From an uncultured Chloroflexia bacterium (GTDB lineage: Bacteria > Chloroflexota > Limnocylindria > QHBO01): DNA of 64,000 nt. Shown here piece after piece: positions 4,188-48,350 of the stretch. The first letter of the stretch is position 1. Each line of letters opens with the position of its first letter. Made by a program: the position numbers and the translations under genes. The stretch lies in contig CAWFCQ010000004.1 of assembly GCA_963814375.1 (NCBI GenBank), positions 224,001-288,000 of the forward strand, read 5' to 3'. Below the pieces are notes generated by a model. The model saw only the letters and a list, made by a program, of their open reading frames with translations. It did not search any database and was not told the origin of the DNA.

Positions 4188-4203
4188 TGCACGGTGGATG
4201 CCG
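4188..4203 (-). promoter_or_regulatory. Candidate sigma54-type promoter
   Basis: CGGCAT-CCACC-GTGCA (GG-N10-GC) upstream of the lipoprotein gene. Confidence 0.5.
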
Positions 4204-4260
4204 TGGCGCGCCATCTCTCGAATCGTGACAGTGCCTGAGGGGACGCTATGATCCGGTAGC

Positions 4261-5511
4261 GTGATTGCCCCACCTGCGCCCCCTGCGGACCGATCCGCGC
4301 ATGCGCGCGCCGAATGGCGGCGACTTCGTGCCTGGCTTTCGACGATCTCACCCCAGGACGTCGGGCGGTCGCTGCTGGCGCTGTCGGTCGGCGGCTTCAC
4401 CTTGTGGCTCACGATCGCGACGTGGCCGGCACTCCTGCCGTTCTTCATCGGCGCGGCGCTCGCATACGCGGTCCTGCCCCTCGTCAACGCGATGGACACC
4501 GTGCTGCCGCGGTTCCTGGCCTCACTCTTCGCGATGGTCATCGTGCTCGCCGGAATCGTGGCCGTCTTCGTGATCATCCTCCCGCCCATGGCGCGCGGAG
4601 TGGGTCAGCTGGCCCAGGAGCTGCCGACTCGAGAGGAGATCGCCACGTGGATCGCGAGCGTTCAGGCCTCTCTCGGCGACCAGGGCGGTCCGGTGGCGCC
4701 GCGACTGGCGGAGCTGATGGAAGGTCTGGTTGCGGCGGCCCGGGGCGGGCTCACCGGCTCGACCGAGGATCTCGCAGAGCTGGCGCCGGCCGTGCTCCAA
4801 GGCGTCATCGGCGCTGTATCGGCCGTCCTGGGTCTCGTCGTCCTCCCGACCTGGATCCTGACCGTGGTCAAAGATCAGCGAGTGGGACGCGGCGCCATCT
4901 TCGCCGCCATGCCGGCCGCGTTTCGCGCCGACCTCTGGGCCGTCGTGCGGATGGTCGATCGCGTGGCCGCCACCTACATCCGTGGCGGGGTTCCGCTCGG
5001 GATCATGGTCGGGGTCATCATGTGGCTCGGACTCAGTGCCGTCGAGCGGCTCGGGTTCTCGGCTTTCCGCGAAGCGGGCCCGATCTCCGTTCTCGCCGGC
5101 GCCTTCCAGGTGATCCCGGAGATCGGACCCCTCATCGGCTTCCTTCCAGCGCTTCTCATCCTGCCGATCTCGGTGGAGCGTGCGGTGATCTACGTCGTGG
5201 TCTACGTCGCCAGCCGCTGGCTGGCCACGACCATCCTTGGGCGACGCGCCGCAGGCCGCAATCGCCTGCATCCGGCCATCCTCGTGCCGGCGATCGTCGC
5301 GCTGACCCAGTTCGGCCTGCTCTGGCTGTTCCTCGCCGGCCCGATGCTCGCGATCGGCTTCGACTTCGTCCGCTACGTGAACGGGCGGCTGTCCAGTCCG
5401 GCTCGACCGGCGGGGCTGATCCCCGACGAAGCGCCGGATGCGGCGTCGGCTGGCGCGGCCGCAGTTCAGCCTCTTCCGACGAGGCGTGCCCCGGTGATCA
5501 TCCATGGTTGA
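4261..5511 (+). CDS. AI-2E family transporter
   Basis: Multi-TM; 'PFFIGAALAYAVLPLV', 'IPEIGP', 'LHPA' patterns. Confidence 0.85.
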   Translation: MIAPPAPPADRSAHARAEWRRLRAWLSTISPQDVGRSLLALSVGGFTLWLTIATWPALLPFFIGAALAYAVLPLVNAMDTVLPRFLASLFAMVIVLAGIVAVFVIILPPMARGVGQLAQELPTREEIATWIASVQASLGDQGGPVAPRLAELMEGLVAAARGGLTGSTEDLAELAPAVLQGVIGAVSAVLGLVVLPTWILTVVKDQRVGRGAIFAAMPAAFRADLWAVVRMVDRVAATYIRGGVPLGIMVGVIMWLGLSAVERLGFSAFREAGPISVLAGAFQVIPEIGPLIGFLPALLILPISVERAVIYVVVYVASRWLATTILGRRAAGRNRLHPAILVPAIVALTQFGLLWLFLAGPMLAIGFDFVRYVNGRLSSPARPAGLIPDEAPDAASAGAAAVQPLPTRRAPVIIHG

Positions 5512-6706
5512 GCAGACCCCGGTTGCCGCGACTCCAGCCCCTCCGCCGCCGGCACCTGCGCCCGCCCCGGTCGAGGTGCAGACGCAGCTGACTCAGGTGC
5601 GGGTGCCGCTGTCCGATGCCGCGGATGCATTCACCGTGGCGGACGCGTACGGCCGGTTCCCGATCGTCGTGCTCACCGGCGAGCGCAGCCGTATCCGCAA
5701 CGAATTCGTCGTTGCCGGCATCGGCCTGGTCCTGGCGGCACTCCTGCTCGGCGTCAACATCGCGCTGCGAGGAGGGCTGGTCGCGGCCGGCGTGGCCCTG
5801 ATCGTCCTCGGACTCTTCAGGTCATTCATCGTGCGGGTGCCGGAGGGCGCCCAGGCGCTCGCACTGCGTGCCGGGCGGTTCGATCGCGCGCTTCCCGCGG
5901 GGAACCATCTGATGTGGCCGTGGATCATGGTCAGCCATGTCGTCACGCGCCGGGAGATTCCCTTCATGGCCGCGGGATCGAGGATTCCGACGGCCGATGG
6001 CGTCGGCGTGGACGTGTCCCTCCTCGTGACATTCGCGATCCGGGACGCCGATCGGTTCGTCTTCTCGATTTCGGCCCCCGACTTCGACCTGGTGTGCACC
6101 GCCGCCAGCCAGGAGGCTCTGCGGCGCCACATTCGCGGAGTGCCGTCCGCGGAGGTGCTCGACCTGGCAGGGGAGGCATCAGACGCGCTGCGCGGAGCGA
6201 TCGCGGTGGACCTCGAGACCTACGGTGTCGTCGTCCACAAGGTCGTCGTGGTCACGGTCCGCCTTCCGGCGGAGTACATGGCCTCGCTCGAGTCTCGCCG
6301 GCTCGCGGAGGTGCAGCAGGCCGAGCAGGCCGAGCGCCACACGCTCGAGCGCCGGGTCCAGGCCGACCGCTACGACCTCCAGCGCCAGAAGGCCCAGGAG
6401 CACCGGAAGCTTATCGACATCGAGGCGGCGAACGAGGCGGCTCGTCTCGAGCAGCTCGAGGCGCGCATCGGCGCCTTCCCGCAAGCCGCCGCGTGGGACG
6501 TTGAGAGCCAGCGCATGGACATCGCCAGGACCTTGGCGGGCAACGACCACGCGATCGTGTCAGTCGGCGATCCGGCGAAGCTGGCCGATGCGCTGATCGT
6601 CGCCGCAGGCCAGAACGATCTCCCCAGATCGGCGCCGTCGGCCACGAAGAAGCCGCCAGCGCCGCGAGCCGCTCAGAAGGCGAAGGGCGACTCGACACCG
6701 ACCTGA
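5504..6706 (+). CDS. SPFH/band 7 domain membrane protein
   Basis: Two TM helices, 'VRVPEG', 'TADGV' and a coiled-coil tail. Confidence 0.85.
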   Translation: MVEQTPVAATPAPPPPAPAPAPVEVQTQLTQVRVPLSDAADAFTVADAYGRFPIVVLTGERSRIRNEFVVAGIGLVLAALLLGVNIALRGGLVAAGVALIVLGLFRSFIVRVPEGAQALALRAGRFDRALPAGNHLMWPWIMVSHVVTRREIPFMAAGSRIPTADGVGVDVSLLVTFAIRDADRFVFSISAPDFDLVCTAASQEALRRHIRGVPSAEVLDLAGEASDALRGAIAVDLETYGVVVHKVVVVTVRLPAEYMASLESRRLAEVQQAEQAERHTLERRVQADRYDLQRQKAQEHRKLIDIEAANEAARLEQLEARIGAFPQAAAWDVESQRMDIARTLAGNDHAIVSVGDPAKLADALIVAAGQNDLPRSAPSATKKPPAPRAAQKAKGDSTPT

Positions 6707-6826
6707 TCTGGGAGCCGATGACCTCGCGTTGATGTCCAGTGGAACACCGCAGCGAGCATTCCGGTGCCATGGGCACCTGCGTCCCAACGACGCTCTCGGC
6801 GACCGCTGACGGGAGCAGCGCAGCCG

Positions 6827-8111
6827 TTAGCGGGGAGTCGGATCGAGGGGATCGGGAAGCCCGTCGTTGTCGTCGTCCGGATCACAGGCGTCGCCGAGGG
6901 CGTCACCGTCGGCGTTCTCCTGCTGGGGATTGGGGATCAGCACGCAGTTGTCAGGCCCGACACCGAGCGCCAGGTCGGGCACACCGTCGCCGTCAGTGTC
7001 GAGCGCGACGATCGGCGTGGGGGTCGGCGCCGGAGGCTGAGGGGGCGCGGGTGTCGGGCGTGGGGTAGCGGCGGGCGGCGGCGGTGGTGCGCCGGCGGCC
7101 GGTGGCGGCGTGGCGCTTGGTCCCGGAGCCGTAGGACCGCCCGTTGAGCCACCGCCAGTCGCACCGCCTCCCGCCGTTTCCCCTGCCGCAGATCCACCGC
7201 CGTCCACCGCCGCAGTTCCACCACCGGCAGCCGTTCCACCACCGGCATTCGTTCCACCGCCTGCAGCGGTGCCGCCGCCTGCAGTCAGTCCTCCACCTTC
7301 GCCGGGGGAGCTCGCAGGAGCGGGCGTCTGGCCACCACCAGGCGATGCTTTCGGCACGTCGAAGGTCAACCGCGAGCCGCGTGGTGAGGGTGGAGTCCCG
7401 CCGAGGACGTTGCCGCCTGGAGACGCGTTTGCGCCAACTTCCGGATCGGCGACTCCGGGCCATCCCGAGCCCACGAGGGCGACCCCGACCCCGATGATGA
7501 ACAGCAACACCGCCGCCGCAGCGTAGAGTCCGCGCCGCGACCGATAGTCCTCGGCAAGGCGCGCGAGCAGTCCGGGACGGGCAGCTGACGACGCGGCCGG
7601 CAACACGATCGGAGGCGCATCCGGCGCGGGTGCAACAGCAGCCGGCTCAGCGCTCGCCGCCCGGAGCGCGACTCCGGCTGCCTGCGCGTGTCGTTGAATC
7701 CGATCTGCCAGGGGCTGTGCTCGCAACGCATTCGCACCGGAGAGCCGTGCCAGCGCCCGCAATCCGACCCGCTCCGCGACGGTGACCTTGATGGCCAGAC
7801 ACGCGGTGTCGATCCGTGGGTCGCGGTCGTCGCCGGCCGGGCTCGGCGCCACCAGGGCCCAAGCCTCCGTCGCCGCCTGCCGGAGCCTGAAGTCGGCTCG
7901 ACGAGCCGTCCTGAGGCTAGCTCCGGCGGCCGCGCCCGGTGGCGGCGGGTGCGGTCGCCGTCGCGCACACGGTGCAGCGGCTTCTCGAGGAGTTCCAGCA
8001 GCCCCGGCACACGTACAGGTTGCATTCGAGGCAGTAGTGCGCGCTCGCGAGGTCGGCAGCCACCGAAACGCCACAGGCTTCGCAGTGAATCGTGGGTACG
8101 AATTGGTCCAC
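6827..8111 (-). CDS. Zn-finger / TM / Gly-Pro stalk / thrombospondin type-3-like repeat protein (apparent +1 frameshift near 7925-7950)
   Basis: Cys-rich N-terminus in ORF 7917..8348 joins ORF 6827..8074; C-terminal '[37 protein letters not shown]'. Confidence 0.65.
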
Positions 8112-8122
8112 GGTCGCCGTAG

Positions 8123-8138
8123 TGCACGTTCGAGGCCT
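8123..8138 (-). promoter_or_regulatory. Candidate sigma54-type promoter (leaderless)
   Basis: AGGCCT-CGAAC-GTGCA; GTG start 13 nt after the -12 C. Confidence 0.45.
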
Positions 8139-8182
8139 ACGTGTCGCCAGGCAACATACGCCGTAAGTCGGCATCCCGCGGC

Positions 8183-9199
8183 TCAATTGCCGGCTTGGGC
8201 GAGCCAGAGCCTCGAGCTCGCGTCGCCGAGGACCTCCACGAGCAGCATCGTGGCGCCGCGGTCCTCGAGGGCGACGAACGAATGGAGCCCGGGCGCGCCA
8301 GGGAAGTCGTCGGACGCGAGCGCGTGCCGGCCGGACGCGCACGCCCACTGCACGCCGTCCGCGCTCGTTGCCGCGAGGATCTGCATTGCATCGTCCTCGC
8401 CTTCGAGCATGACCCCGAAGAAGAGCAAGTGGCCGTCATCGGTCGACAGGAGATGCGGCTCGAACATCGTTCGGGCCTCGACTCCGCAGGCGCTGGGTCC
8501 GAGGGCCTGATCGTCATCCGCTCCTTCCAGCGTGGCGGCCAACCGCGTCCAGCTGACGCCGTCGGGCGAGGCGGCCATCCCGATGCGGTTGCGGTTTGGC
8601 TGCGCGACGCCGGCTCCGCCATAGCCCATGACGTAGCCATCGGCTTCCTGGATCACGCTCGGGTGGTCGGTGATCGCGCCGTCCCATCCTTCGCCGTCCG
8701 GCTCGAGAACCGGGTACGGGTGCGCGGTCCACGGTCCATCCGGCCCGGGAGCGGTCGCGCGCCACACGATCGGATCGTTGCCGCCGGGTAGGCGGCCGCC
8801 GCCGTACATGACCCACGTGCCGTCATCGTCGATGAGCACGGAAGACGGGACCGCGCCGATGTCGTCCAGCTCGATCTCGAAGTCCGCCAGCACCGATGCG
8901 GACGGGTCGCCCGACCAGCTCCTGCCATCCTCCGAGGTGAGGTGCAGGACCCGTGGTGGCTCCGCCGGATCCGCGTAGAAGGCGACCGGGTACAGGTGAT
9001 ACGTCCCGTCGTGCACCACCCCCGCGCCGGGCAGCAGAAAGGCCGCGCCGTAGTCAGCGGGCTCGATCACAGGCTGCTCGCCCACGATGACGAAATTGAT
9101 CGCGGCTCCCGAGGACGCGGGCGAATCCACGCTCGCGGTAGGCGCCTGGCAGGCGACAACCGGCACCATGCACACCACGAAGGCCAATCGGACCTTCAC
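8183..9199 (-). CDS. Lipoprotein with glycoside-hydrolase-like (GH32/43/130-type) beta-propeller
   Basis: Lipobox VVAC; repeated S-x-DG-x-x-W boxes; 'PVLEP..GWD..ITDHPSV'. Confidence 0.7.
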   Translation of the reverse strand: MKVRLAFVVCMVPVVACQAPTASVDSPASSGAAINFVIVGEQPVIEPADYGAAFLLPGAGVVHDGTYHLYPVAFYADPAEPPRVLHLTSEDGRSWSGDPSASVLADFEIELDDIGAVPSSVLIDDDGTWVMYGGGRLPGGNDPIVWRATAPGPDGPWTAHPYPVLEPDGEGWDGAITDHPSVIQEADGYVMGYGGAGVAQPNRNRIGMAASPDGVSWTRLAATLEGADDDQALGPSACGVEARTMFEPHLLSTDDGHLLFFGVMLEGEDDAMQILAATSADGVQWACASGRHALASDDFPGAPGLHSFVALEDRGATMLLVEVLGDASSRLWLAQAGN

Positions 9200-10925: not shown

Positions 10926-11002
10926 GGGCGGCTAGCTCAGCTGGTTAGAGCACTTGCTTGACATGCAAGAGGTCACTGGTTCGAGTCCAGTGTCGCCCAC
11001 CA
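10926..11002 (+). tRNA. tRNA-Val(GAC)
   Basis: Full cloverleaf, anticodon arm CTTGC-TTGACAT-GCAAG, GGTTCGAGTCC T-arm, encoded CCA. Confidence 0.97.
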
Positions 11003-11026
11003 AGACACCGATCTGAGCACGAAAAT

Positions 11027-11045
11027 GACCGCCATCACGGCGGTC
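11027..11045 (+). terminator. Hairpin after tRNA
   Basis: GACCGCC-ATCAC-GGCGGTC; no U-tract. Confidence 0.4.
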
Positions 11046-11061
11046 TCGCGGCTTCCGGGCG

Positions 11062-11077
11062 TGGCAAGCCCGATGCG
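11062..11077 (+). promoter_or_regulatory. Candidate sigma54-type promoter
   Basis: TGGCAA-GCCCG-ATGCG; ATG at 11090. Confidence 0.45.
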
Positions 11078-11089
11078 ATGTCCTTCGAC

Positions 11090-11335
11090 ATGGGACGCCG
11101 CTGGTGGTTCTTCATCATCCCGCTTGGCCACATCGCCATTTTCGCGGTGTACTGGTTCCTGAGCTATGACCCAGCCGGCACCGTCATGTCGGTCCTGTTC
11201 GCCGTTGCCATCGCGGTCATGGGCTTCACCTTGCTCCCCACCATCCGCGACGTGGGACCGACCGCACCGGTCGATGAGGATTGGGATCGGAATCGGTCGG
11301 AGTCAGCCGAAGCCGCGGAGCCGGCCGACCGGTAG
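11090..11335 (+). CDS. Small 2-TM membrane protein
   Basis: Hydrophobic ORF MGRRWWFF...; alternative start 11078. Confidence 0.65.
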   Translation: MGRRWWFFIIPLGHIAIFAVYWFLSYDPAGTVMSVLFAVAIAVMGFTLLPTIRDVGPTAPVDEDWDRNRSESAEAAEPADR

Positions 11336-11470
11336 GCTGGGCAAGGCATCGCGTTTTCCAATCCGTCACCAAGCGGAACGCCTTGCGTCGGCAACGCGCT
11401 CGCCGGTGGCCCGCCAAGTGGTCGGCTGTCCCGCGCGGGAGGGAAGGATGCGTCGGGGGCGCGGCGGCCT

Positions 11471-11963
11471 CTAGTTTGCGGCCGCCTCCGTAGTTCGCTC
11501 GCGGAGCAGGAAAATTCCTACGCCGAGCATGATGCCGCCCCAGACCAGGAAACCGATGTCGTAGAGGAGCTCGTCTGGGCCGGGCCGCACGTGGTGCACG
11601 CCCAACAGGTGGTGGTCTACCAAGCCCTCGACGACGTTGAAAGCGCCCCATCCGGCGAGCATGCCCCCGACGAGGTGGGACCAGCCCAGGGAGGCACCAC
11701 TCCGCACCCCTCCCCAAATGAGCACGACCCCAATCAACGTGAAGACCCAGGTCGCGGCATGAAAGAGCCCATCAGCGAGCGTATTCAGCTCGAGATTCGC
11801 GATTGAGTTGGGGGGCGTGTGAGCCGACAGCATGTGGTGCCACTGCAGGATCTGGTGCAGCACGATGCCGTCGAAGAAGCCACCGAGCCCGAGCCCTAGC
11901 AAGATCGTACCGGCGGTAACGAGCGACCCGCCAGAGACCTGCGACTCGAGCCCGGTGCTCCAC
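11471..11963 (-). CDS. DUF2243-like membrane protein (start region apparently frameshifted)
   Basis: 'GFFDGIVLHQILQWHH', 'DGLFHA', 'DHHLLGVHHVR'; removing one G from GTGGAGC gives an in-frame GTG start. Confidence 0.8.
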
Positions 11964-11968
11964 CGACT

Positions 11969-12448
11969 CTAGGCGCTGGCGATCTGGACCGCGAAGTCGG
12001 CCAGGCTCTTGCCCAGCTCGTCCGCGCCGGCCTTGATCTCGCGCTTCATCCTGGTGGCCGCATCGCGGAGATCAGTGTCCTTGCGATCGCGGGCGATCTT
12101 GATGACCGCATCGGCGCTGTCCTGCTGCTTGCGCTTCAGGTTGAGGAGCACCGCATGCGCCTCGTAGGCCTCGCTCTCCTCGCTGTCGGCCTTGGATGCC
12201 GTCTCCTCTGCCAGGGTCGATAGGGCCTCGGCCACCTCTTCCCGCTTGCCAGCGGCGCCGAATGGCTTTCCGAACTTGACGAGCTGGTCGAGGTGGCGCT
12301 GGTCGATCTTGCCCGCGGCTTGGAGCTGACGCTTGACCTTCGCGACCGGGTGCTTCGTCGCCAGTTGCTTCCCGGTTTCGACGATGGTGGTCTGGATCGC
12401 GATGGCCTCGTCGAACTCGTGCTTGATGAACTCGGTCCCCGCTGGCAT
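11969..12448 (-). CDS. Ferritin-like four-helix protein
   Basis: GGAGGAG RBS, ATG at 12448; amphipathic helices with 'DQRHLDQL' and 'YEAH'. Confidence 0.65.
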   Translation of the reverse strand: MPAGTEFIKHEFDEAIAIQTTIVETGKQLATKHPVAKVKRQLQAAGKIDQRHLDQLVKFGKPFGAAGKREEVAEALSTLAEETASKADSEESEAYEAHAVLLNLKRKQQDSADAVIKIARDRKDTDLRDAATRMKREIKAGADELGKSLADFAVQIASA

Positions 12449-12500
12449 GACTGTTTCTCCTCCCGATGATTCATGGGGGGCGGCTGCCCGAGCCCCGTAA

Positions 12501-12516
12501 AGCAGGGGCTGTGCCA
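12501..12516 (-). promoter_or_regulatory. Candidate sigma54-type promoter
   Basis: TGGCAC-AGCCC-CTGCT. Confidence 0.65.
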
Positions 12517-12528
12517 GCCCGCTGAATT

Positions 12529-12544
12529 TGGCACAGCGGTTGCT
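12529..12544 (+). promoter_or_regulatory. Candidate sigma54-type promoter
   Basis: TGGCAC-AGCGG-TTGCT, a full consensus match. Confidence 0.7.
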
Positions 12545-12580
12545 TTTAGAGCCCGTCGACAAGAACAGCGTTCGGAGGGG

Positions 12581-12821
12581 ATGGACGTGGCTCTTGCACC
12601 CACCAAACGGCACGACCGGCCGGACGACCACTGGCTTGGAGCGCCGTAGGCTGCTCCGCCGACTCATGATTACGTGTCCCGTCACTGGAGCGGCGACCGA
12701 CACCGGACTTGACCTGTTCGATGTGCCTGAGGTCGGCACCAGACCGCAGCTCTTGATCGATTGCCTCGAGTGCGGGCAGGACCACCTTTGGAACATCGAT
12801 GAGGTAGTGGTCGACAACTAG
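12581..12821 (+). CDS. Small Zn-ribbon-like protein (apparent +1 frameshift near 12638)
   Basis: GGAGGGG RBS and ATG 12581; 'ITCPVTG..TG..CLECGQDHLW'. Confidence 0.65.
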
Positions 12822-12897
12822 GCTGACTTGGCTCTCACGCCCGTAGCGCGGTGAGGAATTTGGGGGAGTAGCATCGAGTCGTCTAGGGTCTCTCAGC

Positions 12898-13122
12898 TTG
12901 ACCCTGGCAGGAGGCCAGACCTTGTCGGATGCAACCCCAACCGAGGGCAATCGGAGTCCTAAGGGTGGATGGAAGCGTGCCGGGTTGGCCGCCTTGGCGG
13001 TATTCCTGATCTTCCTGGTGCTGTACGTCGTCGGAGTGATCCCACAGACCGGCGCGTGGGCGGCCGCTTGGATGCCATTCGCGGCGGTGGCGGGGTGGCT
13101 AGGGTACCGCGGCACAATCTGA
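12898..13122 (+). CDS. Small 2-TM hypothetical protein
   Basis: Hydrophobic ORF; start uncertain. Confidence 0.45.
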   Translation: MTLAGGQTLSDATPTEGNRSPKGGWKRAGLAALAVFLIFLVLYVVGVIPQTGAWAAAWMPFAAVAGWLGYRGTI

Positions 13123-13189
13123 CAAGCCATTGCCCTGGCATCCTGCTCTCCGCAGTTGTTCCGAAGTCAGGCGACGCCATGATCGGTGC

Positions 13190-13491
13190 GTGACGGACGG
13201 AATTGCCTGGAGTCGAGCGCTCATCGTCGGCCTAACAGTCGGCCTCGGCTTCGCCGTGATCGGAACGCTGAGCGCTGTCGCCGGGACCCTTGCAGAGCGG
13301 GAGTGGACCGAGTACTTCTTCAACTTTCTGATCGAAGCAGCCCTCTACGTCCCGATTGCAGTTGTGACTTCAGCGATCGCGATGAAGCTTCGACCCAATT
13401 GGGGGTGTGGTGCGCTGGGCTGTGCCGCAGTCCTTGGAGTCTTCACGTGGGAGGAGTAGTCATCGCCCTGATCGTCCCCCTCCTCAGCTAG
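13190..13491 (+). CDS. Small multi-TM hypothetical protein (possible frameshift near 13447)
   Basis: CATGAT-N6-GTG start; the hydrophobic C-terminus continues in another frame (VGGVVIALIVPLLS). Confidence 0.5.
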
Positions 13492-13764
13492 CCGGGAGGA
13501 TTGCGTCTGGATTGCTGCGGATGTAGCGCTTGTCGCCCGGGTCCGGCTCGACTAGTTCGCATTTGCGGAGAGCTAGAGGACTCAAGGTCGCGGCGATTGG
13601 CAGTCGCTCGGAGCGGCATTGGGCTACGACGCGGGTCTTGTCTGCGAATTGACAAGTCTCACGTCGGCCATCGGCTATGCATCTAGCGTCCCAAAGCCAA
13701 ACCTCGACAGAACATCTCGGCCAGCGCAGACTGCGCGTACCAGCCGGGACGGAGGAATTTGGGC

Positions 13765-14705
13765 ATGAGCGACACACCACTTGCCATCAAGGTCGCAGGG
13801 GAAGGCACTCGGGCCCACGCGTCCGCGTGGACCTCAGACGACGAGACGTGGATCAAGCAGCTGAGCGATTCCGAGAAGGTGGTTCGGATCCGGATCCCCG
13901 CGGATTCAGACTCAGACACCGAGGGTCACGCGATCTCGACCGCCGTGACCGTATTCGTCGACGCGGACGATGACGACACCGAAGGCCATACGCTGAGGCT
14001 GCACTTCCCGTCGGTTCATGAAGCGAACGACTTCCGTCGGAATCTGATGGCCGCGGGGCTGCTCACCGCGACCCTGGCGGTCGGCGCGGCAGGTGGAGCG
14101 GCAATCGGCATGGCCGCCTCCGGCATCGACGCGAACGAAGCCAGCATCGTCTCGAGTGTGGGCCAGTACGATCCCGCCAACATGGGTGGCACCATCACCA
14201 CCTCGGCTGCCAGCTTGGGCCAGGCCGATCCGGCCAACATGGGTGGCACCATCACGACCTCGGCTGCCAGCTTGGGCCAGGCCGATCCGGCCAACATGGG
14301 TGGCACCATCGCGCCAGCGGCTGCTAGCTTGGGCCAGGCCGATCCGGCCAACATGGGTGGCACCATGCACGTCGGCCGCCAGCTTGGGCCAGGCCGATCC
14401 GGCCAACATGGGTGGCACCATCGCGCCAGCGGCCGCCAGCTTGGGCCAGGCCGATCCGGCCAACATGGGTGGCACCATCGCGCCAGCGGCCGCCAGCTTG
14501 GGCCAGGCCGATCCGGCCAACATGGGTGGCACCATGCACGTCGGCCGCCAGCTTGGGCCAGGCCGATCCGGCCAACATGGGTGGCACCATCACGTCGGCC
14601 GCCAGCTTGGGCCAGGCCGATCCGGCCAACATGGGTGGCACGCCGCCGTCGGACACCAGCAGCGAGGAGGACGCCCCGCCGTCGACCCCGCCTGGCATCC
14701 GTTAA
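13765..14705 (+). CDS. DTEGH-motif membrane protein with 9 tandem GQADPANMGGT repeats (two apparent frameshifts)
   Basis: GGAGGA RBS; TM segment; the repeat reading continues across three frames and ends PPSDTSSEEDAPPSTPPGIR*. Confidence 0.75.
14161..14642 (+). repeat. Coding tandem repeat, 9 units (57,57,57,55,57,57,55,54 bp plus a partial 33 bp)
   Basis: Core GGCCAGGCCGATCCGGCCAACATGGGTGGCAC counted directly. Confidence 0.95.
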
Positions 14706-14801
14706 GCAGCCCAGAGGGTCACTCGGGCGGCTTTCTTAGACCTGCGTGACGACCCGCCGAGCGCTTTGAGCAATCCATAGCCGCTTGACGGCCGAGGACC
14801 G

Positions 14802-15752
14802 TCACAGCCACCCACGCCATTTGGCCGCGATGAGCGTGCCGGCGGCCATCGCCAGCATCGCGCCGATCACAACCCAGAAGAGGTCGGGCTGGTCGAACAG
14901 CGGGACCTTGAAGTTCATGCCCATGACGCCGGCCAGGACGACCGACGGCAGGAGGATCACCGACGCGAGCGTCAGGATCCGCATGGTGTCGTTCGTCCGC
15001 TGCGCCATGCGCGTCATGTGGATGTCGAACGTGCCGATCAGCATCTCGCGAACGTTGCTGATCGCATCGCCGGCGCGTTCGAGCCGCTTGGCGACGGCCA
15101 CGAACGCGTCGGCATGCTCGGCCATCGACGCCGGCAGGAAGTCCGGCCGGGACAGCTCGGCGGCCAGGTCCCGATGCGGGATCAGGATGCGGCGCACGCG
15201 CGCGATGCGGCGACGAACCTGCACCAGCCTATCGACGAGGTCGCGCTCGGTGCGCAGCGCCGCGTCATCGAGCCTGTCGACGATACGCTCAAGCTCGGCC
15301 GCGGCATTGAAGAAGGTGTCGACATGCCAGTCCATGATCGAGGCCATGAACTCCACCGACGTGAGGCGCCCGACCTCGCGCTGGTCCTGGATCAGCTCGC
15401 GGTGAGCGTCGAGGAACGGGACCGATTCAGCATGGTGTGTAACCACCCAGCCCTCGCCGGCGAGGATGCGCATTGGCACCGGATCGGCCTCGAGGTCGTC
15501 GGCCTGCGTCAGGAGGACGACTTCCACGGCGCCGTCATGGATGCTGGCGGCCGGCCAGTCCGCGTCGTCAAGCAGCCGCGCGGCGAGGTCGTCGCCGATG
15601 CCCAACGCGCGGGCGATCGCGTGGGGGTCGTCGGGCTCGTCGGCATCGACCCACAGCAGCTCGTCGGCGGCGAGCGGTCGCGACTCCCATTCGGCGATGT
15701 CGACCGCCTCGTCGGTACCGTCGGCCCTGCAGAAAAGTGCCGTGATGCTCAT
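14802..15752 (-). CDS. corA: CorA family Mg2+/Co2+ transporter
   Basis: GMNF signature and two C-terminal TM helices. Confidence 0.9.
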   Translation of the reverse strand: MSITALFCRADGTDEAVDIAEWESRPLAADELLWVDADEPDDPHAIARALGIGDDLAARLLDDADWPAASIHDGAVEVVLLTQADDLEADPVPMRILAGEGWVVTHHAESVPFLDAHRELIQDQREVGRLTSVEFMASIMDWHVDTFFNAAAELERIVDRLDDAALRTERDLVDRLVQVRRRIARVRRILIPHRDLAAELSRPDFLPASMAEHADAFVAVAKRLERAGDAISNVREMLIGTFDIHMTRMAQRTNDTMRILTLASVILLPSVVLAGVMGMNFKVPLFDQPDLFWVVIGAMLAMAAGTLIAAKWRGWL

Positions 15753-15900
15753 CGGGAGCGCGTGCCGCGCCGACGGGTCACTTGCGCCATCGGCGAAGCC
15801 GACTCAGAAGCGCAGGCAGCGCTCGATACGCTCGTGTGCGATCGACGGCGAAGGTCACGAGAACGACGACGATGACGGGTGCCACCAACGCCTCCACGGC

Positions 15901-16080
15901 CTAGTTCTCGCTCGCCACGGTGATGATCGCCTCGTCGCGGCGCCATTCGTGGTCGGCCCCGCAACGGTCGCAGCCATTCAGGACGTTGACCGTTGGTAGC
16001 TCGTCCAGCTCATCGCGTGAGAGCCCGGTTGGCACCATGTCACCGGTAGTCGGGCAAGTAATCAGAACCACCGACCTCAC
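15901..16080 (-). CDS. Small Zn-ribbon-like protein (paralog of 12581..12821)
   Basis: 'LITCPTTG..PTG..CDRCGADHEW'. Confidence 0.7.
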   Translation of the reverse strand: MRSVVLITCPTTGDMVPTGLSRDELDELPTVNVLNGCDRCGADHEWRRDEAIITVASEN

Positions 16081-16198
16081 TCGAGGGCCCCAGTTTCCTC
16101 TAGCCGGCGGCAGCTTCCGGTGAGTGCAGATGGAGGTGGACCCCGGCCGACCCATCAGGGCACGTGAGTCATGGCCGTGGCCCCCTGTGTCCCTTCAA

Positions 16199-16214
16199 TG
16201 CAACCGGCGTGCCG
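16199..16214 (-). promoter_or_regulatory. Candidate sigma54-type promoter
   Basis: CGGCAC-GCCGG-TTGCA. Confidence 0.65.
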
Positions 16215-16234
16215 CTGCGGACACCGAGCAGGCG

Positions 16235-16471
16235 CTAGCCGCCGGCCAGCGTGTCCTCGCTCGGCGGCAGCGGCGGGCTGATCGGGAGCAAGTCCTCGAG
16301 GGATGCGAGTAGGCTCGCCGAGCTCACCTCGTTTTCAGGCGTGCACTCGGCCAGGTTGGGTTCGGTCCCCGGCGTGAACGGCCCATGTGCTCTCGCCAGC
16401 GAGCCGTCCTCGGCTCGAATGACCAGGTACGGCATGTTGTCGTAAATGACCCGCACGGCATCGGCGACCAT
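16235..16471 (-). CDS. Small hypothetical protein
   Basis: GAGGA RBS and ATG; protein-like composition. Confidence 0.6.
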   Translation of the reverse strand: MVADAVRVIYDNMPYLVIRAEDGSLARAHGPFTPGTEPNLAECTPENEVSSASLLASLEDLLPISPPLPPSEDTLAGG

Positions 16472-16646
16472 GGCTTCCTCGTAAATAGGGAAGAGACTGG
16501 GCCGCAAAAGCGCATTGGCCCAGTCTCCGCTGTCCCCCGAGCGCGATCCCGTCCGGCCCTGCAGGGCTTTGCGAGCGGTCAGCTCACCGTGGCGGGTACG
16601 GCTCTCGGTTCAGCCTATTGCAGGATTGTGGCCAGTCCGGTCGCAG

Positions 16647-17238
16647 TTAGCGGTCGGAGCGGCTTGAACCACCCAGCAGTGAGCCGAGCAGGTCATCGAG
16701 GCCCTGTGACTGCGTTCGTGGCGTGGTCGTGGAGCCGGTGCTCCCACCGCCCAGGATCCCGCCCAAGAGGTCGTCGAGCCCGAACCCGCCGGCGCCACCG
16801 CTCTGCCGCTGCTTGCGCCCGAGCATGTTCATCACGATCGGGGCGAGCATGGAAAGCAGCGGACCGATGGTGCCCATGTCGAGGCCGCTCTTCTTGGCGA
16901 CTGCCTCCTCGGCCGCCGTCTGGCGATCACCGAGGGCGTGCTTCAGGATTCCGGTGCCGTCGGCGCGCCGACCACTGACGTTCCCGGCCAGGTAGTCGTC
17001 GAGGTCGTCGAGCAAGCTGCCGTCGTGATCTTCGGCGAGAGCGCGCGTCAGTCCGGGCGCGGCATTCGGGTCGGACGCCTCCGCCCCGAGTGCGCCGACC
17101 AAGAGCGGGAGGGCATCGTTGATTGCGCTCCGTGGTGCGATCGGGGTCAGCCCCGATCCGAGTGCTGATGCGCTGCACGCGCTCATCGGAGAGCTCGTCA
17201 TTGAGGCTATCGATCAGGGTCGCTGTTGGGGACGTCAT
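16647..17238 (-). CDS. DUF937-like protein (apparent +1 frameshift near 17130)
   Basis: 'HDGSLLDDL', 'DGTGILKHALG', 'LAPIVMNMLG'; the N-terminus lies in ORF 16927..17238. Confidence 0.8.
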
Positions 17239-17277: not shown

Positions 17278-17293
17278 CGCAAGTCCGATGCCG
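17278..17293 (-). promoter_or_regulatory. Candidate sigma54-type promoter
   Basis: CGGCAT-CGGAC-TTGCG. Confidence 0.6.
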
Positions 17294-17713: not shown

Positions 17714-17729
17714 CGCATGACCTGTGCCA
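17714..17729 (-). promoter_or_regulatory. Candidate sigma54-type promoter
   Basis: TGGCAC-AGGTC-ATGCG. Confidence 0.6.
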
Positions 17730-18548: not shown

Positions 18549-19556
18549 CTAGCGACCGATGCGGCGGACGAGCCCAATCACTCCGAGCATGAGCCCGGCC
18601 AGCGCGACCCGCTTGCGCTCAGGGTGGAGCTCGAAGTGCGTCGTGAAGACGCTGCTCGACTTCGATCCGACGCCGAAGTCGCCGGTTGTCGAACCCGTAC
18701 CGGTGCTCGGGTCGAAGAGGTTGTCGCCGGCCTTGTCCGGACGCCGGGTCACCTGCTGCTTCCACGCTCGGCCGCCCTGGAGCATGTAGCCGTCGAGGAG
18801 CGTGGGGCTCAGCCACTGGACGACGGTGAGCAGCTTGCCCCAGCCGCCGACCACCACCTCGCGGCCGCCGTGCTCCGCGACGTGGCAGATTGCCTCGGCC
18901 ACCACGCGCGGCTCGTAGACCGGCGGCACCGGCACCGGCTCGACGCCGAGCTTCGAGCGCGCGGAACGGAAGAGCGGCGTATTCATGGACGACGGCATGA
19001 CGAGAACGACGTCGATGCCCGACCCGTCGGCCATCAGCTCCAGGCGCAGCGCCTCGCTGAACCCGGCAACCCCGTGCTTGCTCGCGACGTAGGCCGACTG
19101 GAGCGGGATGGCGCGGTCCGAGAGGGCGGAGCCGACGTTCACGATCGTCCCGCCCCCGGCCCGGCGGAGATGGGGGATCGCCGCCCGGGCGCCGTACATC
19201 TGGCCCAGCAGGTTGACCTGGATCAGCCGCTCCATCTCGTCCGGCTCGAGCCGCTCGGCCGGCGCGTAGATGCTCACCCCGGCGTTGTTGACCCAGGTGT
19301 CGATCCGGCCGAAGCGCTCGACCGCGCGTGCGGCCAGGCGATCGACCTGCTCCGCATCGGCGACGTCGGTAACGACGGCCTCGACCTCGCCGCCGATGCG
19401 CTCCACCTGCCGCGAGAGCTCCTCCAGGGCCTCCTGGTTTCGTGCGGCGACCACCACCGACGCGCCGCGCGTCGCGAGCTGGAGCGCCGTCTCGCGGCCG
19501 ATCCCCTGGGAGGCACCGGTGATGACGACGACCTGCTCCGCGATCGGCCTTCCCAT
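18549..19556 (-). CDS. SDR family oxidoreductase
   Basis: TGASQGIG, NNAG and YVASK motifs. Confidence 0.92.
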   Translation of the reverse strand: MGRPIAEQVVVITGASQGIGRETALQLATRGASVVVAARNQEALEELSRQVERIGGEVEAVVTDVADAEQVDRLAARAVERFGRIDTWVNNAGVSIYAPAERLEPDEMERLIQVNLLGQMYGARAAIPHLRRAGGGTIVNVGSALSDRAIPLQSAYVASKHGVAGFSEALRLELMADGSGIDVVLVMPSSMNTPLFRSARSKLGVEPVPVPPVYEPRVVAEAICHVAEHGGREVVVGGWGKLLTVVQWLSPTLLDGYMLQGGRAWKQQVTRRPDKAGDNLFDPSTGTGSTTGDFGVGSKSSSVFTTHFELHPERKRVALAGLMLGVIGLVRRIGR

Positions 19557-20052: not shown

Positions 20053-20068
20053 CGCACGCCGCGTGCCG
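20053..20068 (-). promoter_or_regulatory. Candidate sigma54-type promoter
   Basis: CGGCAC-GCGGC-GTGCG upstream of the hemerythrin-SDR pair. Confidence 0.55.
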
Positions 20069-37089: not shown

Positions 37090-37105
37090 GGGCATCGGAC
37101 GTGCA
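37090..37105 (+). promoter_or_regulatory. Candidate sigma54-type promoter (leaderless)
   Basis: GGGCAT-CGGAC-GTGCA; ATG at 37117. Confidence 0.5.
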
Positions 37106-37116: not shown

Positions 37117-37614
37117 ATGGCACGCGTGACCCGACTCCCACCACGGTCCGGCTACCGGCCTCGCGAGCAGTCGGAGGTCGAGCTCATGGCGTGGCTGCTC
37201 GACAACAGCATTCCGGTGCCGCTGACCGGTGGGCGGCGCGTGGGCATCGACGGCATCATCGGCTTCGTTCCCCTCGTCGGCGACATCGCGAGCGCCGGGA
37301 TGGGGCTCTTCCTCGTATGGCGGGCATCGAGGATGGGGCTGCCGCGCATCGTGATCGCACGAATGCTCGTGAACACCGGCATCGACACGCTCATCGGCCT
37401 CATTCCGTTCGCCGGCGACGCCTTCGACCTGTGGTTCAAGTCCAACACCCGCAACATCGGCATGATGCGACGCCATGTGTCGCTGCCGGACGCCTCGACG
37501 CGCGAGGACTGGATCGGCATGGGCGCCCTGATTGGCGCGGTCATCGGCGTGCTCGCGCTGGTCGGCTGGATCATCTACTCCGTGATCTCGAGCCTCATCG
37601 GACTGCTGATCTGA
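37117..37614 (+). CDS. DUF4112 family membrane protein
   Basis: 'LLD..GIDGIIGFVPLVGD..RMLVN..IPFAGD.FD..KSN.RN'. Confidence 0.88.
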   Translation: MARVTRLPPRSGYRPREQSEVELMAWLLDNSIPVPLTGGRRVGIDGIIGFVPLVGDIASAGMGLFLVWRASRMGLPRIVIARMLVNTGIDTLIGLIPFAGDAFDLWFKSNTRNIGMMRRHVSLPDASTREDWIGMGALIGAVIGVLALVGWIIYSVISSLIGLLI

Positions 37615-38578
37615 CAGCGTGCCGCTCGAGGTGGAGCCGGGCCAGCTCGACGGCCCGGTCGCGGACGTCGGTGGGCTCCAGGATCTCGCCCGCGCCGCCG
37701 AGGGCGACGAGGCGACCCGGAACCTCCTCCGGCCAATCCACGCTGAGGCGGAGCCGATACCACCCGTCGGGATCGTCGCCGGTGTCGAGCCGCGTTGCCT
37801 CACGGACGGCGCGCTCACCAACCACGTCGACGAGCCGGCCGATGGCTCGTGGATCGATGCGGAGCGTGACCTCCATGCGCGGCGTGTCGCGCTCGTAGGC
37901 CGCGATCGACTCGCGCCAGTGGGTCGGCAGGTCGAAGTCGGCGGGGCGGGTGAAGGTCTCGCCGGTCGCCTCGACGCGGACGATCCGGCGTACTCGGTAG
38001 GTACGGATCTGGCCGTCGGCTGCGGCAACCACGTACCAGACGCCACCCTTGAGGACGACACCGAGGGGGTTCACCACGCGATCGACCGCGGCCTCCCCGC
38101 GCCGGTAGCTGATCCGCACCTGGCGCGATTCCCATACCGCGTCGGCGAGCGTCGCGAGGTTCGGCACGGCCTCGCTCGCCTGGAACCAGCTGGCCGCGTC
38201 GAGATGGAAGCGCTCCACCAGACGAGAAGCCCGCGCGCGCAGCTCCGTGGGCAGCGATGCCAGCACCTTGAGGCGAGCGGCCGCCACGACGGTGCCGAGT
38301 CCGAGCTCGGCGGCGGGTCCTGGGAGCCCCGACAGGAACAGCGCCTCGGCCTCGTCGCCGGTCAGGCCGGTCAGGCGGGTGCGGTAACCGTCGACGAGCT
38401 GGATGCCGCCGTGCGGGCCGCGCTCGGCATAGATCGGGACCCCGGCCGCGCTCAGCGCGTCGACGTCCCGGTGGATCGTTCGCTCGGAGACCTCCAGCTC
38501 CTCGGCGAGCACCGCAGCCGTGACGCGACCGCGCGCCTGGAGCAACAGCAGGAGCTGAACGAGACGGGAAGCGCGCAT
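37595..38578 (-). CDS. YafY-type HTH-WYL-WCX transcriptional regulator
   Basis: 'LEVSERTIHRD', 'GVWYVV..RTYRVRRI'. Confidence 0.92.
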   Translation of the reverse strand: MRASRLVQLLLLLQARGRVTAAVLAEELEVSERTIHRDVDALSAAGVPIYAERGPHGGIQLVDGYRTRLTGLTGDEAEALFLSGLPGPAAELGLGTVVAAARLKVLASLPTELRARASRLVERFHLDAASWFQASEAVPNLATLADAVWESRQVRISYRRGEAAVDRVVNPLGVVLKGGVWYVVAAADGQIRTYRVRRIVRVEATGETFTRPADFDLPTHWRESIAAYERDTPRMEVTLRIDPRAIGRLVDVVGERAVREATRLDTGDDPDGWYRLRLSVDWPEEVPGRLVALGGAGEILEPTDVRDRAVELARLHLERHAVRSAVR

Positions 38579-40071: not shown

Positions 40072-40087
40072 AGCAAGCCGAGTGCCT
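40072..40087 (-). promoter_or_regulatory. Candidate sigma54-type promoter
   Basis: AGGCAC-TCGGC-TTGCT. Confidence 0.6.
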
Positions 40088-45522: not shown

Positions 45523-45564
45523 GCCATGCTTCGGGCATCGGTCCTGCGGTAGGCTAGGGCAGCC

Positions 45565-46524: not shown

Positions 46525-46539
46525 GCTCGGCGCCTCGAC

Positions 46540-46725: not shown

Positions 46726-47037
46726 ATGAGCAGCACCGCCGCCGAGCGTGTCTGGGAGGTCTTCCGGCAGGAGGACGAGGGCGATCCCATGATCCACGCC
46801 GGCAACGTGAACGCTCCCGACGAGGAGCTCGCCATGCACTACGCGCGCGAGTTCTACGGACGCCGCGGCGAGTCGCATCGGCTCTGGATCGTCGCGCGCG
46901 ACGCGATCACCGAGCTCGACGACCCGGACCTGCTCAAGCCGCCGTTCGATCGGTCTCACAAGAAGCCCGGCGGGTACATCATCAAGCACAAGCTCGAGGC
47001 GGCGAAGGCACGCGCGGCGACGGAGGCGGGGGAGTGA
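46726..47037 (+). CDS. paaB: Phenylacetyl-CoA epoxidase subunit B
   Basis: 'WEVF..HAGNVNAPD.ELA..AR..Y.RR.E..LWIV'. Confidence 0.88.
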   Translation: MSSTAAERVWEVFRQEDEGDPMIHAGNVNAPDEELAMHYAREFYGRRGESHRLWIVARDAITELDDPDLLKPPFDRSHKKPGGYIIKHKLEAAKARAATEAGE

Positions 47038-47811
47038 CCACCGCACCCGGTACCCTGGACCTCGCAACCCGGGACGCGCTGGCGGAGCTGATCCTGAGCG
47101 TCGCCGACGACGAGTTCGTCATCGGCTTCTGGGACTCGGAATGGACCGGTATCGCGCCGATGCTCGAGGAGGACGTCGCAACCAGCTCGATCGCCCAGGA
47201 CGAGATCGGCCATGCCAAGGCGCTCTACGAGCTTCTGGCCGAGCTGACCGATGACGACGCCGACCGCATCGCCTTCGGTCGTGCCGCCGCCGACTTCCGA
47301 CACGCGGCACTCCTCAACCACGCGCGGGGCGACTGGGCGTTCAGCGTCGCACGTCGCTACCTGTACGAGACCGCCGATGCCGTCCGCCTCGCCGCACTCT
47401 CGCGCTCGACGCCACGAGCCGCTGGCCGCATTGACGGGCAAGATGCGCCGCGAGGAGACCTACCACCTGCTCCACGCCGAGGCGTGGCTCCGGCGTCTCG
47501 CAGATGCCCCACCGCCGGCCTCCGATCGGCTCGCCACGTCCCTGCGAGAGCTCTGGCCCGACGCCCAGGAGGTCTTCGCGCCGCTGCTCGAGGAGGAGGA
47601 GCTCGTCCGCTCGGGGCTCCTCGCCGAGCCGATGCGCGCCATGCACGCGGCGTGGATGTCAAAGGTTCGGCCAACGCTCGAGCCGATCGCCGGTGAGCTG
47701 CCGGACTCGGCGCCGAGCCTCGACGGCCGTACGCGCAGGACCGATGAGTTCGCCTGGCTGCATCGTGAGTTCACGATGGTGTCCGGCTCGGATGCCGAAG
47801 CCTCATGGTGA
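47034..47811 (+). CDS. paaC: Phenylacetyl-CoA epoxidase subunit C (apparent +1 frameshift near 47411)
   Basis: 'ADDE..LEEDVA..QDEIGHA' then 'EETYH..WL.RL' in the next frame. Confidence 0.85.
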
Positions 47812-48326
47812 CCGCGACCCCGCATGCGGCGCGCGAGCGCCGGATCTGGGACGAGCTGGCGCAGATTCCGGATCCCGAGATCCCGGCCATCAGCGTGGTG
47901 GACCTTGGCGTCATCGGCTCCGTCGCCGTGGACGGCCACCGGGTGCGTGTCCAGCTCCTTCCCACGTTCGTCGGCTGCCCGGCAATCGGCATCATGCAGA
48001 CGCAGATCACCGATCGGCTCAGCGCCCTCGAGCCGGCGACCGAGGTGGAAGTCGCCATCAGCTTCGACCCGCCGTGGACCAGCGATCGGATCTCGGTCCA
48101 GGGGCGCGAGCAGCTGCGCCGCAGCGGCTTCGCTCCGCCGGCGCCGATGCCGGCCGGACCGGCTCTCGGCCAGCTCGACGAGCTGGCGGTCCTGCCGATC
48201 GCCGAGTGCCCGTACTGCGGCTCGCGCAACACGACCCTCGACAACCCATTCGGGCCGACCCTGTGTCGGGCGATCTACCACTGCGCCGACTGCCGCCAGC
48301 CGTTCGAGCAGATGAAGCGCGTCTGA
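47805..48326 (+). CDS. paaD: Phenylacetyl-CoA epoxidase subunit D
   Basis: DPEIP, PTFVGCPA, CPYCGS and 'FGPTLCR..C..C..PFE' motifs. Confidence 0.92.
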   Translation: MVTATPHAARERRIWDELAQIPDPEIPAISVVDLGVIGSVAVDGHRVRVQLLPTFVGCPAIGIMQTQITDRLSALEPATEVEVAISFDPPWTSDRISVQGREQLRRSGFAPPAPMPAGPALGQLDELAVLPIAECPYCGSRNTTLDNPFGPTLCRAIYHCADCRQPFEQMKRV

Positions 48327-48334
48327 GCGCGCCT

Positions 48335-48350
48335 TGGCGTGCCGCTTGCA
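48335..48350 (+). promoter_or_regulatory. Candidate sigma54-type promoter (leaderless)
   Basis: TGGCGT-GCCGC-TTGCA; ATG at 48362. Confidence 0.6.

Follow-up and report, generated by a model that had tools for sequence, protein, structure and literature searches.

We describe a directional 14-nt element with the consensus (t)GGCA[CT]-N5-nTGC(w), which stands before small genes in a 64,000-nt stretch of DNA from an uncultured bacterium of the Limnocylindria (contig CAWFCQ010000004.1; the whole stretch is called the window below). In its strict form this motif is a real, conserved and directional promoter of a regulon. We propose that its sites act as -24/-12 class core promoters, which would be read by the sigma-54 (RpoN) holoenzyme and would control a stress or dormancy regulon, and we give this reading, based on sequence comparison, a probability of about 0.6. 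Sigma-54 is favoured since its promoters have the same fixed bases at exactly the same spacing, likewise lack -10 and -35 boxes and lie at a matching distance from the presumed start. A sigma-54 regulon with leaderless mRNAs had been suggested for the window by a model that saw only its letters (the original prediction); what stands of that suggestion is a directional element of the promoter class, with a sigma-54 core and a -24/-12 position relative to the start codons, and the factor itself carries the probability given above.

Occurrence, direction and conservation of the element

Limnocylindria are an uncultured class of Chloroflexota, whose soil families are reported to have genomes of 2.4-3.2 Mb with ~68% G+C and to reach an abundance of up to 30% in soils (PMC13212565). 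The comparison set consisted of 80 related loci (L001-L080; 1.147 Mb) around hemerythrin homologues, taken from species-representative genomes; six are labelled Actinomycetota and 74 are not, and most are named Limnocylindria, Limnocylindrales or Chloroflexi, like the homologues of the window hemerythrin themselves ('Candidatus Limnocylindria', 'Limnocylindrales' or 'Chloroflexi bacterium'). The loci represent less than 1% of each relative's genome, and their genes were called by a codon-usage caller trained on the window, which covered 82% of the DNA, so that locus-based counts are approximate. The gene order around hemerythrin is not conserved, and hence the orthologues of most other window targets are not in the loci; conservation is therefore well testable for the hemerythrin promoter only.

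The strict motif, GGCA[CT]-N6-TGC, has 13 matches in the window as compared with 6.19 +/- 2.66 in whole-window shuffles, 2 of 100 of which reach 13. Ten of the 13 lie in intergenic DNA, which makes up 11.2% of the window (binomial p = 6e-8), and all ten face a start codon located 12-122 nt downstream; the other three are within genes (4121-, 49095-, 60440+). Dinucleotide shuffles of the intergenic DNA alone lead to an expectation of 0.84 +/- 0.98 strict matches, with a maximum of 5 in 500 shuffles. An unbiased count of all 4-mer/N0-20/3-mer dyads over 5,920 nt of oriented upstream DNA, for which the motif of the original prediction was not used, placed GGCA-N7-TGC at the top, with 11 of its 18 window-wide occurrences upstream (p = 1.5e-9, or ~5e-4 after correction for the 344,064 possible dyads). 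The second-ranked dyad is the same motif offset by one base, and N7 is the only enriched spacing. Chance or base composition as the source of the motif is ruled out by the two kinds of shuffles together with the dyad count. Over the window and the 80 loci, the density is 0.415 strict matches per kb of intergenic DNA versus 0.063 per kb of coding DNA.

The twelve sites listed in the original prediction are all present, each GGC beginning one base later than the prediction placed it, as the leading N had been counted. Nine of them are strict (4189-, 12502-, 12530+, 16200-, 17279-, 17715-, 20054-, 37091+ and 40073-), which agrees with the description of most as GGCAY, and a tenth intergenic strict site, 45534+ before paaA, had been overlooked. 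The expectation that the motif would exceed shuffled and coding sequence holds for the strict sites, enriched intergenically as they are, but not for 8124, 11063 and 48336, which match the loose motif GGC-N8-TGC. With the strict sites removed, this loose class shows no intergenic enrichment (11 of 111 matches, p = 0.71), so that these three are without statistical support as motif matches and the loose pattern is ruled out as the unit; the one thing that speaks for them is a start codon 12-13 nt downstream. The original prediction had also seen no motif before housekeeping genes, and indeed thrS, infC, rpmI, rplT, pheST and tyrS have none.

Since GCA-N7-TGC, the core of the motif, reads the same on both strands, a symmetric operator had to be considered. 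Between co-directional genes of the window and the loci, 46 sites are sense and 7 antisense (p = 4e-8), and the removal of the hemerythrin orthologues, which are not independent, leaves 24 versus 7 (p = 0.003). Several of the seven antisense matches lie in long gaps where the crude gene caller probably missed a small gene. Convergent spacers contain a single strict match in 30.9 kb. The flanks are also asymmetric: at the window sites a G is always found 5' of GCA and C follows TGC in 0 of 13, and in the loci C follows TGC at 3-12% of the sites versus 29% of the matches inside genes. Position 5 of the motif (C or T) shows no covariation with its mirror position at the window sites. Two perfect palindromes, GGCACC-N4-GGTGCC at L029:2377-2391 and L050:1754-1768, are scored by the strict pattern on both strands and have C after TGC; they are probably unrelated to the promoter class. 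An RNA element is ruled out, Rfam having returned one tRNA only in the window, and so is a terminator hairpin of the upstream gene, as no site but that of hemerythrin is palindromic and a T run is lacking after it.

The hemerythrin site of the window (20054) is the best supported of all. The loose motif is located within 110 nt upstream of the orthologous gene in 36 of the 80 loci and the strict one within 130 nt in 35 of the 74 non-Actinomycetota loci, with 32 of the strict cases among the 40 closest orthologues and 3 among the 40 more distant ones. Between the motif C and the ATG there are 37-64 nt, in most loci 41-49, and the flanks differ between loci. In the Actinomycetota-labelled loci the strict motif is found before hemerythrin in 0 of 6, and the pattern G[GT]TT-N13-17-GGG[TA]A[TC] is present in 5 of 6 as against 0 of the 74 others; it is the pattern of SigB/SigF general-stress promoters. 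The same hemerythrin gene thus belongs to a stress regulon in one phylum and carries the -24/-12 motif in the other. The five Actinomycetota-labelled loci (L049, L050, L056, L071 and L074) have GTTT-N14-16-GGG(T/A)A(T/C) at 40-110 nt before the hemerythrin match. The more distant Limnocylindrales have neither the strict motif nor the GTTT/GGGTAT-like pattern before this gene. In L062, L065, L068 and L077 (also L078 and L079) a palindrome, TGCAAC-N3-6-(T)TTGC(A/G), is located ~85-95 nt before the hemerythrin ATG, and a dimeric regulator probably has its operator in this TGCAAC...GTTGCA-like palindrome of the distant Limnocylindrales.

Within the hemerythrin promoters, a conserved spacer yields GCACGC-N-GCGTGC, a near-perfect 13-nt palindrome which other regulon members lack, and a second, gene-specific regulator may bind there. 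Some contigs labelled Binatia, Angelobacter, Verrucomicrobiia, Steroidobacteraceae or Patescibacteria (L013, L019, L030, L035, L038, L043 and L078) encode hemerythrins 66-84% identical to that of the window, and four of these (L013, L019, L035 and L038) have the same promoter motif; the odd taxon labels may reflect binning rather than biology.

For the other targets the loci provide single cases. In L020 the DUF4112 orthologue, with an N-terminus like that of the window protein, starts at an ATG 13 nt downstream of a strict site, and the L018 orthologue of the window SDR has a strict site of its own, also at 13 nt. Single-domain receivers follow the strict motif in L039 (at 13 nt) and L018 (at 102 nt), and the L005 orthologue of the ITCPxTG small protein (12594-12821) follows it at 41 nt. 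Transgly_assoc, DUF2231, Iron_permease, glyoxalase and lipoprotein genes are preceded by it as well. A clustering like that at 11-18 kb of the window is seen in L005 and L006, each of which has three sites no more than a few hundred bases from small genes.

The gene families found in the window and its relatives fit the stress or dormancy theme of the original prediction, as does the SigB/SigF-like pattern of the actinobacterial hemerythrin orthologues. We infer the 'stress or dormancy' label from the identity of these families combined with the promoter swap seen in the actinobacterial loci.

Several sites are so close to the start codon that a leader can hardly be accommodated. The original prediction had reported four such cases, and in these the start codon follows the C after 12, 12, 12 and 13 nt; with the receiver-like gene, the distances are 12 nt at 37091, 48336 and 8124, 13 nt at 11063 and 15 nt at 40073, none of them with a Shine-Dalgarno sequence. 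The L018 SDR has its nucleotide-binding motif from residue 13 and the L039 receiver its fold from residue 2; as conserved domains begin within ~13 residues, the ATGs 13 nt after the C are real starts. Since the mRNA must include the start codon, transcripts should start no more than 13-15 nt after the element. The other window sites, with the ITCP starts uncertain, are 39-53 nt from starts preceded by GGAG-like ribosome-binding sites.

Leaderless transcription is not peculiar to this element. In 95 of 813 upstream regions (window plus L001-L080) the first T of a TANNNT hexamer forms a sharp peak at -12 to -15 from the start codon, with no clear -35 box and no enrichment of TG before the hexamer, from which sigma-70-type leaderless mRNAs seem to be common in Limnocylindria. 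The strict motif is present in 0 of these 95 promoters, and no TANNNT follows the TGC at the leaderless motif sites of the window and the loci; as the two never occur together, they are separate promoter classes. The leaderless claim of the original prediction hence gains from the 13-nt starts that recur for DUF4112, SDR and receiver genes in relatives, and loses its specificity, this being a habit of the lineage (95/813) and not of the regulon. Our literature search turned up no report that connects leaderless mRNAs with sigma-54 promoters; a single paper, a Chlamydia transcriptome, has both terms.

Proposed recognition of the element by sigma-54, and rival explanations

The bases that vary least in the sigma-54 consensus, TGGCACG-N4-TTGCW, which was reportedly compiled by Barrios et al. 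in 1999, are the same seven that are fixed in the element, and they are spaced alike. In the GGCA-N7-TGC core the GG and GC doublets are ten bases apart, i.e. one helical turn, and no sigma-70 -10 or -35 boxes are seen at the leaderless motif sites of the window and its relatives. The phylum is no bar to this factor, given that sigma-54 and its activators have been reported in 'some Chloroflexi' (PMC3162934).

In the mechanism that we propose, sigma-54 RNA polymerase would bind GG and GC, at a distance of one turn, as a closed complex, which an AAA+ activator encoded elsewhere would open. This activator may act without an enhancer, because the intergenic spaces measure 35-90 nt and share no upstream element. 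Transcription would begin ~12-13 nt after the GC. For the DUF4112 and receiver-like genes, and probably for the 77-aa and 81-aa genes, the start point would coincide with the start codon and give a leaderless mRNA, and the remaining genes would have leaders of 25-40 nt with a Shine-Dalgarno sequence.

Several observations weigh against sigma-54. Neither RpoN nor a sigma-54-type AAA+ domain was detected when the window and the 1.147 Mb of the 80 loci were searched by tblastn with the E. coli proteins RpoN and NtrC, the latter matching receiver domains alone over these 1.21 Mb, and Pfam found no Sigma54 family among 72 window proteins. The original prediction had likewise seen neither rpoN nor an enhancer-binding protein in the window, as Pfam and tblastn now confirm; the absence of rpoN from the loci weighs little, as they are less than 1% of each genome. 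No Chloroflexota RpoN, which would have made a closer query, appeared among the matches listed by tblastn against a plasmid collection (best 60 of 366 and best 60 of 361). In the 200 nt upstream of 13 sites no 6- to 8-mer exceeds a random-window null; an activator working from solution would not require its promoters to share an upstream activator sequence. Two T positions of the consensus are weak: 4 of 13 window sites and 36% of those in the loci have the T before GG, and at -15 G, C or A are as frequent as T. Counted from the start codon, the C is at position -13 or -14, 1-2 bases beyond the textbook -12. A dimeric regulator could bind the spacer palindrome of the hemerythrin promoters too. 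From the literature, the main text of a 2025 survey covering the sigma-54 regulons of 16 phyla leaves Chloroflexota unmentioned, and high G+C is argued there to disfavour sigma-54 (PMC12316311). We found no literature on sigma-54 in Limnocylindria or on their transcription signals.

A sigma-70 promoter with an extended -10 is ruled out by the separate TANNNT class and the lack of TG before TANNNT. An autoregulated alternative sigma can also be discarded: E. coli RpoE and RpoS queries retrieved four sigma-70-family genes in 1.2 Mb, none with the strict motif upstream, the one in L040 having a loose match only, 92 nt upstream.

The housekeeping sigma-70 holoenzyme could nevertheless be recruited to these promoters if GGCAC were the '-26 element' of an activator that dispenses with the -35 box. 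In actinobacteria PafBC acts in this way by 'sigma adaptation', with a -26 element plus TANNNT. The TGC would then fall in the register of the TGn of an extended -10; with the start codon as +1, GGCAC occupies -26 to -22 and TGC -15 to -13. Furthermore, a gene for a PafC-like HTH_11-WYL-WCX regulator (37595-38578) adjoins the DUF4112 promoter, and the failure to find rpoN or a sigma-54 activator in the window and the loci points in the same direction. However, the sigma-70 holoenzyme needs a -10 hexamer, and every leaderless motif site is devoid of TANNNT after the TGC; A accounts for only 10-12% at the positions expected for A(-11), and the 95 TANNNT promoters contain neither the motif nor an enriched TG before the hexamer. 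We consider such an activator unlikely. A dimeric repressor or activator whose operator overlaps promoters of another kind would explain why GCA and TGC are reverse complements, why the hemerythrin sites extend to GCACGC-N-GCGTGC and why a clear TGCAAC-N-GTTGCA-like palindrome precedes the same gene in distant Limnocylindrales. A symmetric site predicts no strand preference, though, and the observed ratio is 46:7 toward the gene; its flanks would not differ as they do, with the 5' G constant and a 3' C almost never present, and position 5 should covary with its mirror. Moreover, at 12-13 nt before leaderless starts there is room for no other promoter. The strand bias and the asymmetric flanks rule out a symmetric operator as the main reading, and we consider this explanation of the element very unlikely.

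A further possibility is that the -24/-12-like promoter is read by an undescribed sigma or RNA-polymerase-associated protein, other than RpoN, in a lineage without sigma-54. This would fit a real, conserved and directional core promoter with no sigma-70 boxes, the fact that neither rpoN nor an activator was seen in the window and the loci nor an enhancer in the 200 nt upstream, and flanks that depart from the classical consensus in the weak T before GG and at -15. On the other hand, an unrelated protein would hardly reproduce the seven bases of sigma-54 with their exact spacing, the small fraction of each genome that was sampled (<1%) deprives the rpoN absence of much meaning, and the four sigma-70-family genes in 1.2 Mb have no strict motif upstream. 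Such a protein seems to us a shade less probable than the PafBC-like activator. The fuller picture, in which Limnocylindria would possess neither rpoN nor sigma-54 activators and an undescribed factor would direct a stress or dormancy regulon of perhaps at least 100 genes from enhancer-free -24/-12-like promoters with leaderless transcripts, is about as doubtful as that activator.

Sites and target genes in the window

The sites and the genes that follow them are listed in Table 1. The first genes after the window sites all encode proteins of no more than 184 aa, except DUF937, which is ~197 aa if read from ATG 17238.

Table 1. Sites of the element and associated genes in the window.
Feature	Position	Strand	Remarks
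Strict site GGCATCCACCGTGC	4189..4202	-	42 nt to ATG of 3706-4146; divergent intergenic region; Shine-Dalgarno-like GGAG before ATG
Lipoprotein-like gene, 146 aa	3706..4146	-	Signal peptide ends ...SAC; no family
Loose site GGCCTCGAACGTGC	8124..8137	-	GGCC variant; 12 nt to GTG at 8111; doubtful
Cys-rich open reading frame (ORF), 64 aa	7917-8111	-	After 8124; codon score -7.8
Loose site GGCAAGCCCGATGC	11063..11076	+	GGCAAG variant; 13 nt to ATG 11090; second ATG 11078; possible member
Membrane protein gene, 81-85 aa	to 11335	+	After 11063; good codon score
Strict site GGCACAGCCCCTGC	12502..12515	-	53 nt to ATG at 12448
159-aa conserved protein	11969..12448	-	No described family; helical by composition
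DUF2243 membrane protein	11471..11902	-	Pfam 1.5e-49; downstream of 159-aa gene
Strict site GGCACAGCGGTTGC	12530..12543	+	T before, T after; divergent partner of 12502, 14 nt apart
Small protein, LMITCPVTG core	12594..12821	+	Start uncertain; paralogue of 15901-16155
Strict site GGCACGCCGGTTGC	16200..16213	-	Before small gene 15901-16155
Small 'ITCPTTG' protein	15901..16155	-	Start uncertain: ATG 16155 or GTG 16080
Strict site GGCATCGGACTTGC	17279..17292	-	40 nt to DUF937 ATG at 17238
DUF937 gene	16647..17238	-	Pfam 5.8e-27; two frames, apparent frameshift ~17100-17200
Strict site GGCACAGGTCATGC	17715..17728	-	39 nt to ATG at 17675
93-aa gene	17394-17675	-	No family
Strict site GGCACGCGGCGTGC	20054..20067	-	42 nt to hemerythrin ATG; 10 nt past pfkB stop
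Hemerythrin-domain protein, 150 aa	19559..20011	-	Pfam 1.9e-17
SDR oxidoreductase, PRK07109 subfamily	18549..19556	-	2 nt after hemerythrin gene
Strict site GGCATCGGACGTGC	37091..37104	+	12 nt to DUF4112 ATG at 37117; predicted leaderless
DUF4112 membrane protein	37117..37614	+	Pfam 4.7e-32
Strict site GGCACTCGGCTTGC	40073..40086	-	15 nt to GTG at 40057
Receiver-like protein, 143 aa	39626..40057	-	No Pfam match at E < 0.08
Strict site GGCATCGGTCCTGC	45534..45547	+	17 nt to paaA ATG
Loose site GGCGTGCCGCTTGC	48336..48349	+	GGCGTG variant; 10 nt past paaD stop, 12 nt to ATG 48362; no Shine-Dalgarno; possible member
77-aa acidic, proline-rich conserved protein	48362..48595	+	No described family

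Of the family names given in the original prediction, DUF2243, DUF937, DUF4112, hemerythrin and SDR are borne out and the receiver is weakly supported, while 'ferritin-like' (Pfam E = 0.022) and 'Zn-ribbon' (E of at least 0.0076) were not confirmed. The former name concerns the 159-aa protein, for which a profile search of PDB gave no relative at E < 0.09; it has 1143 homologues, the best 120 listed being 159-204 aa long and mostly 159. Site 12502 serves its gene and probably also that of DUF2243. The 143-aa protein shows weak BLASTP similarity to the motif-preceded receivers of L039 (E = 0.005) and L018 (3e-4).

The window hemerythrin gene has the highest codon-usage score in the window, 0.67 per codon. 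Its product matches NCBIfam NF053874, the PA2171 family, over its full length with 138.1 bits (E = 2e-40), below the cut-off of 190, and is a relative, not an equivalog, of this ribosome-binding persister family; PA2171 of Pseudomonas aeruginosa is reported to bind ribosomes and FtsZ and to promote persister formation (PMC13041383). The SDR gene is probably on the same transcript.

The 81-aa membrane protein, the 77-aa acidic protein and paaA are possibly members of the regulon. The first has no orthologue in the 80 loci. The 77-aa gene is real; its product has 85 homologues, with an N-terminal Met common to 21 of the 22 aligned. Site 45534 abuts TAGGCT, a -10-like box, which makes the membership of paaA uncertain. 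The 64-aa ORF after 8124 is doubtful as a gene because of its negative codon score.

The DUF937 N-terminus (from ATG 17238) and body (in the frame of 17201) are in different frames, and both align to one L039 orthologue; in paaC an apparent frameshift at ~47400-47430 likewise separates the reading frames of the two halves. Both genes either are pseudogenes or contain indels from the assembly. Among 72 candidate window genes Pfam identified thrS-infC-rpmI-rplT-pheST, tyrS, mutS2, ligD and paaABCD, and many small genes are without an assigned family. The G+C content is ~70% across the whole window, dropping to 0.66-0.68 at 8-16 kb. A tRNA-Val at 10926-11002 is followed by the stretch of lowest G+C (0.66; 11003-17700), with seven motif sites and many small genes, which may be an island or just a cluster of small genes. 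Within it, positions 14159-14641 form a tandem array of 8.6 copies of a 57-nt unit (92% matches) in the ORF 13759-14739, which has no Pfam family; the 19-aa repeat SLGQADPANMGGTITTSAA shifts its reading frame along the array. Over ~1.2 kb (6982-8183) codon usage gives no convincing reading frame, and the 415-aa ORF 6827-8074 (-) has as its sole match a thrombospondin type-3 repeat at its end.

Significance and relation to known promoter systems

Limnocylindria are uncultured Chloroflexota that abound in soil and freshwater, and we found no literature on their transcription signals. If sigma-54 runs this regulon, it would be the general stress or dormancy sigma of a lineage with 70% G+C, working with no visible enhancers and on leaderless transcripts. 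This would extend its known roles and speak against the idea that high G+C excludes sigma-54, for which PMC12316311 argues. Its products include several conserved small proteins without an assigned function, such as those of 159 aa and 77 aa, together with a PA2171-like hemerythrin, and the regulon could be predicted in hundreds of metagenome-assembled genomes with the 14-nt motif as a handle. Should rpoN be absent, the finding would be much larger, namely a third mode of bacterial promoter recognition or a natural activator-independent offshoot of sigma-54.

The element resembles sigma-54 -24/-12 promoters in the fixed GGCA and TGC with exactly seven bases between them and no -35/-10 boxes, in the C or T and then mostly G after GGCA, in the preference for A or T after GC, and in ending ~12-14 nt before the presumed transcript start. 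It differs from them in that the sigma factor and activator are inferred, the spacers are very short and share no enhancer, T is weakly represented both before GG and at -15, leaderless mRNAs are predicted for several targets, and the targets are small stress-like genes and not those of nitrogen metabolism, flagella or envelope. Sigma-54 activators independent of enhancers exist, namely CtcC of Chlamydia, FlgR of Helicobacter and Rrp2 of Borrelia. As in these systems, a single activator with no requirement for DNA binding could serve many compact promoters, which fits the lack of a common upstream element; unlike them, no activator gene was seen in the window and the 80 loci, and the likeness is one of analogy.

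PafBC / RecA-NDp promoters likewise have their upstream element near the start, with its centre around -24 to -26, and a WYL gene is present in the window; in contrast, the TANNNT hexamer is missing here, and the motif sequence and the gene set differ. The SigB/SigF-type general stress regulons of Bacillota and Actinomycetota, with the consensus GTTT-N14-16-GGGTAT, share similar gene families with the regulon described here, and a pattern of this type precedes hemerythrin in 5 of the 6 Actinomycetota-labelled loci. This pattern is, however, absent from the window and the 74 other loci, in which the same kind of genes would be placed under an entirely different promoter architecture.

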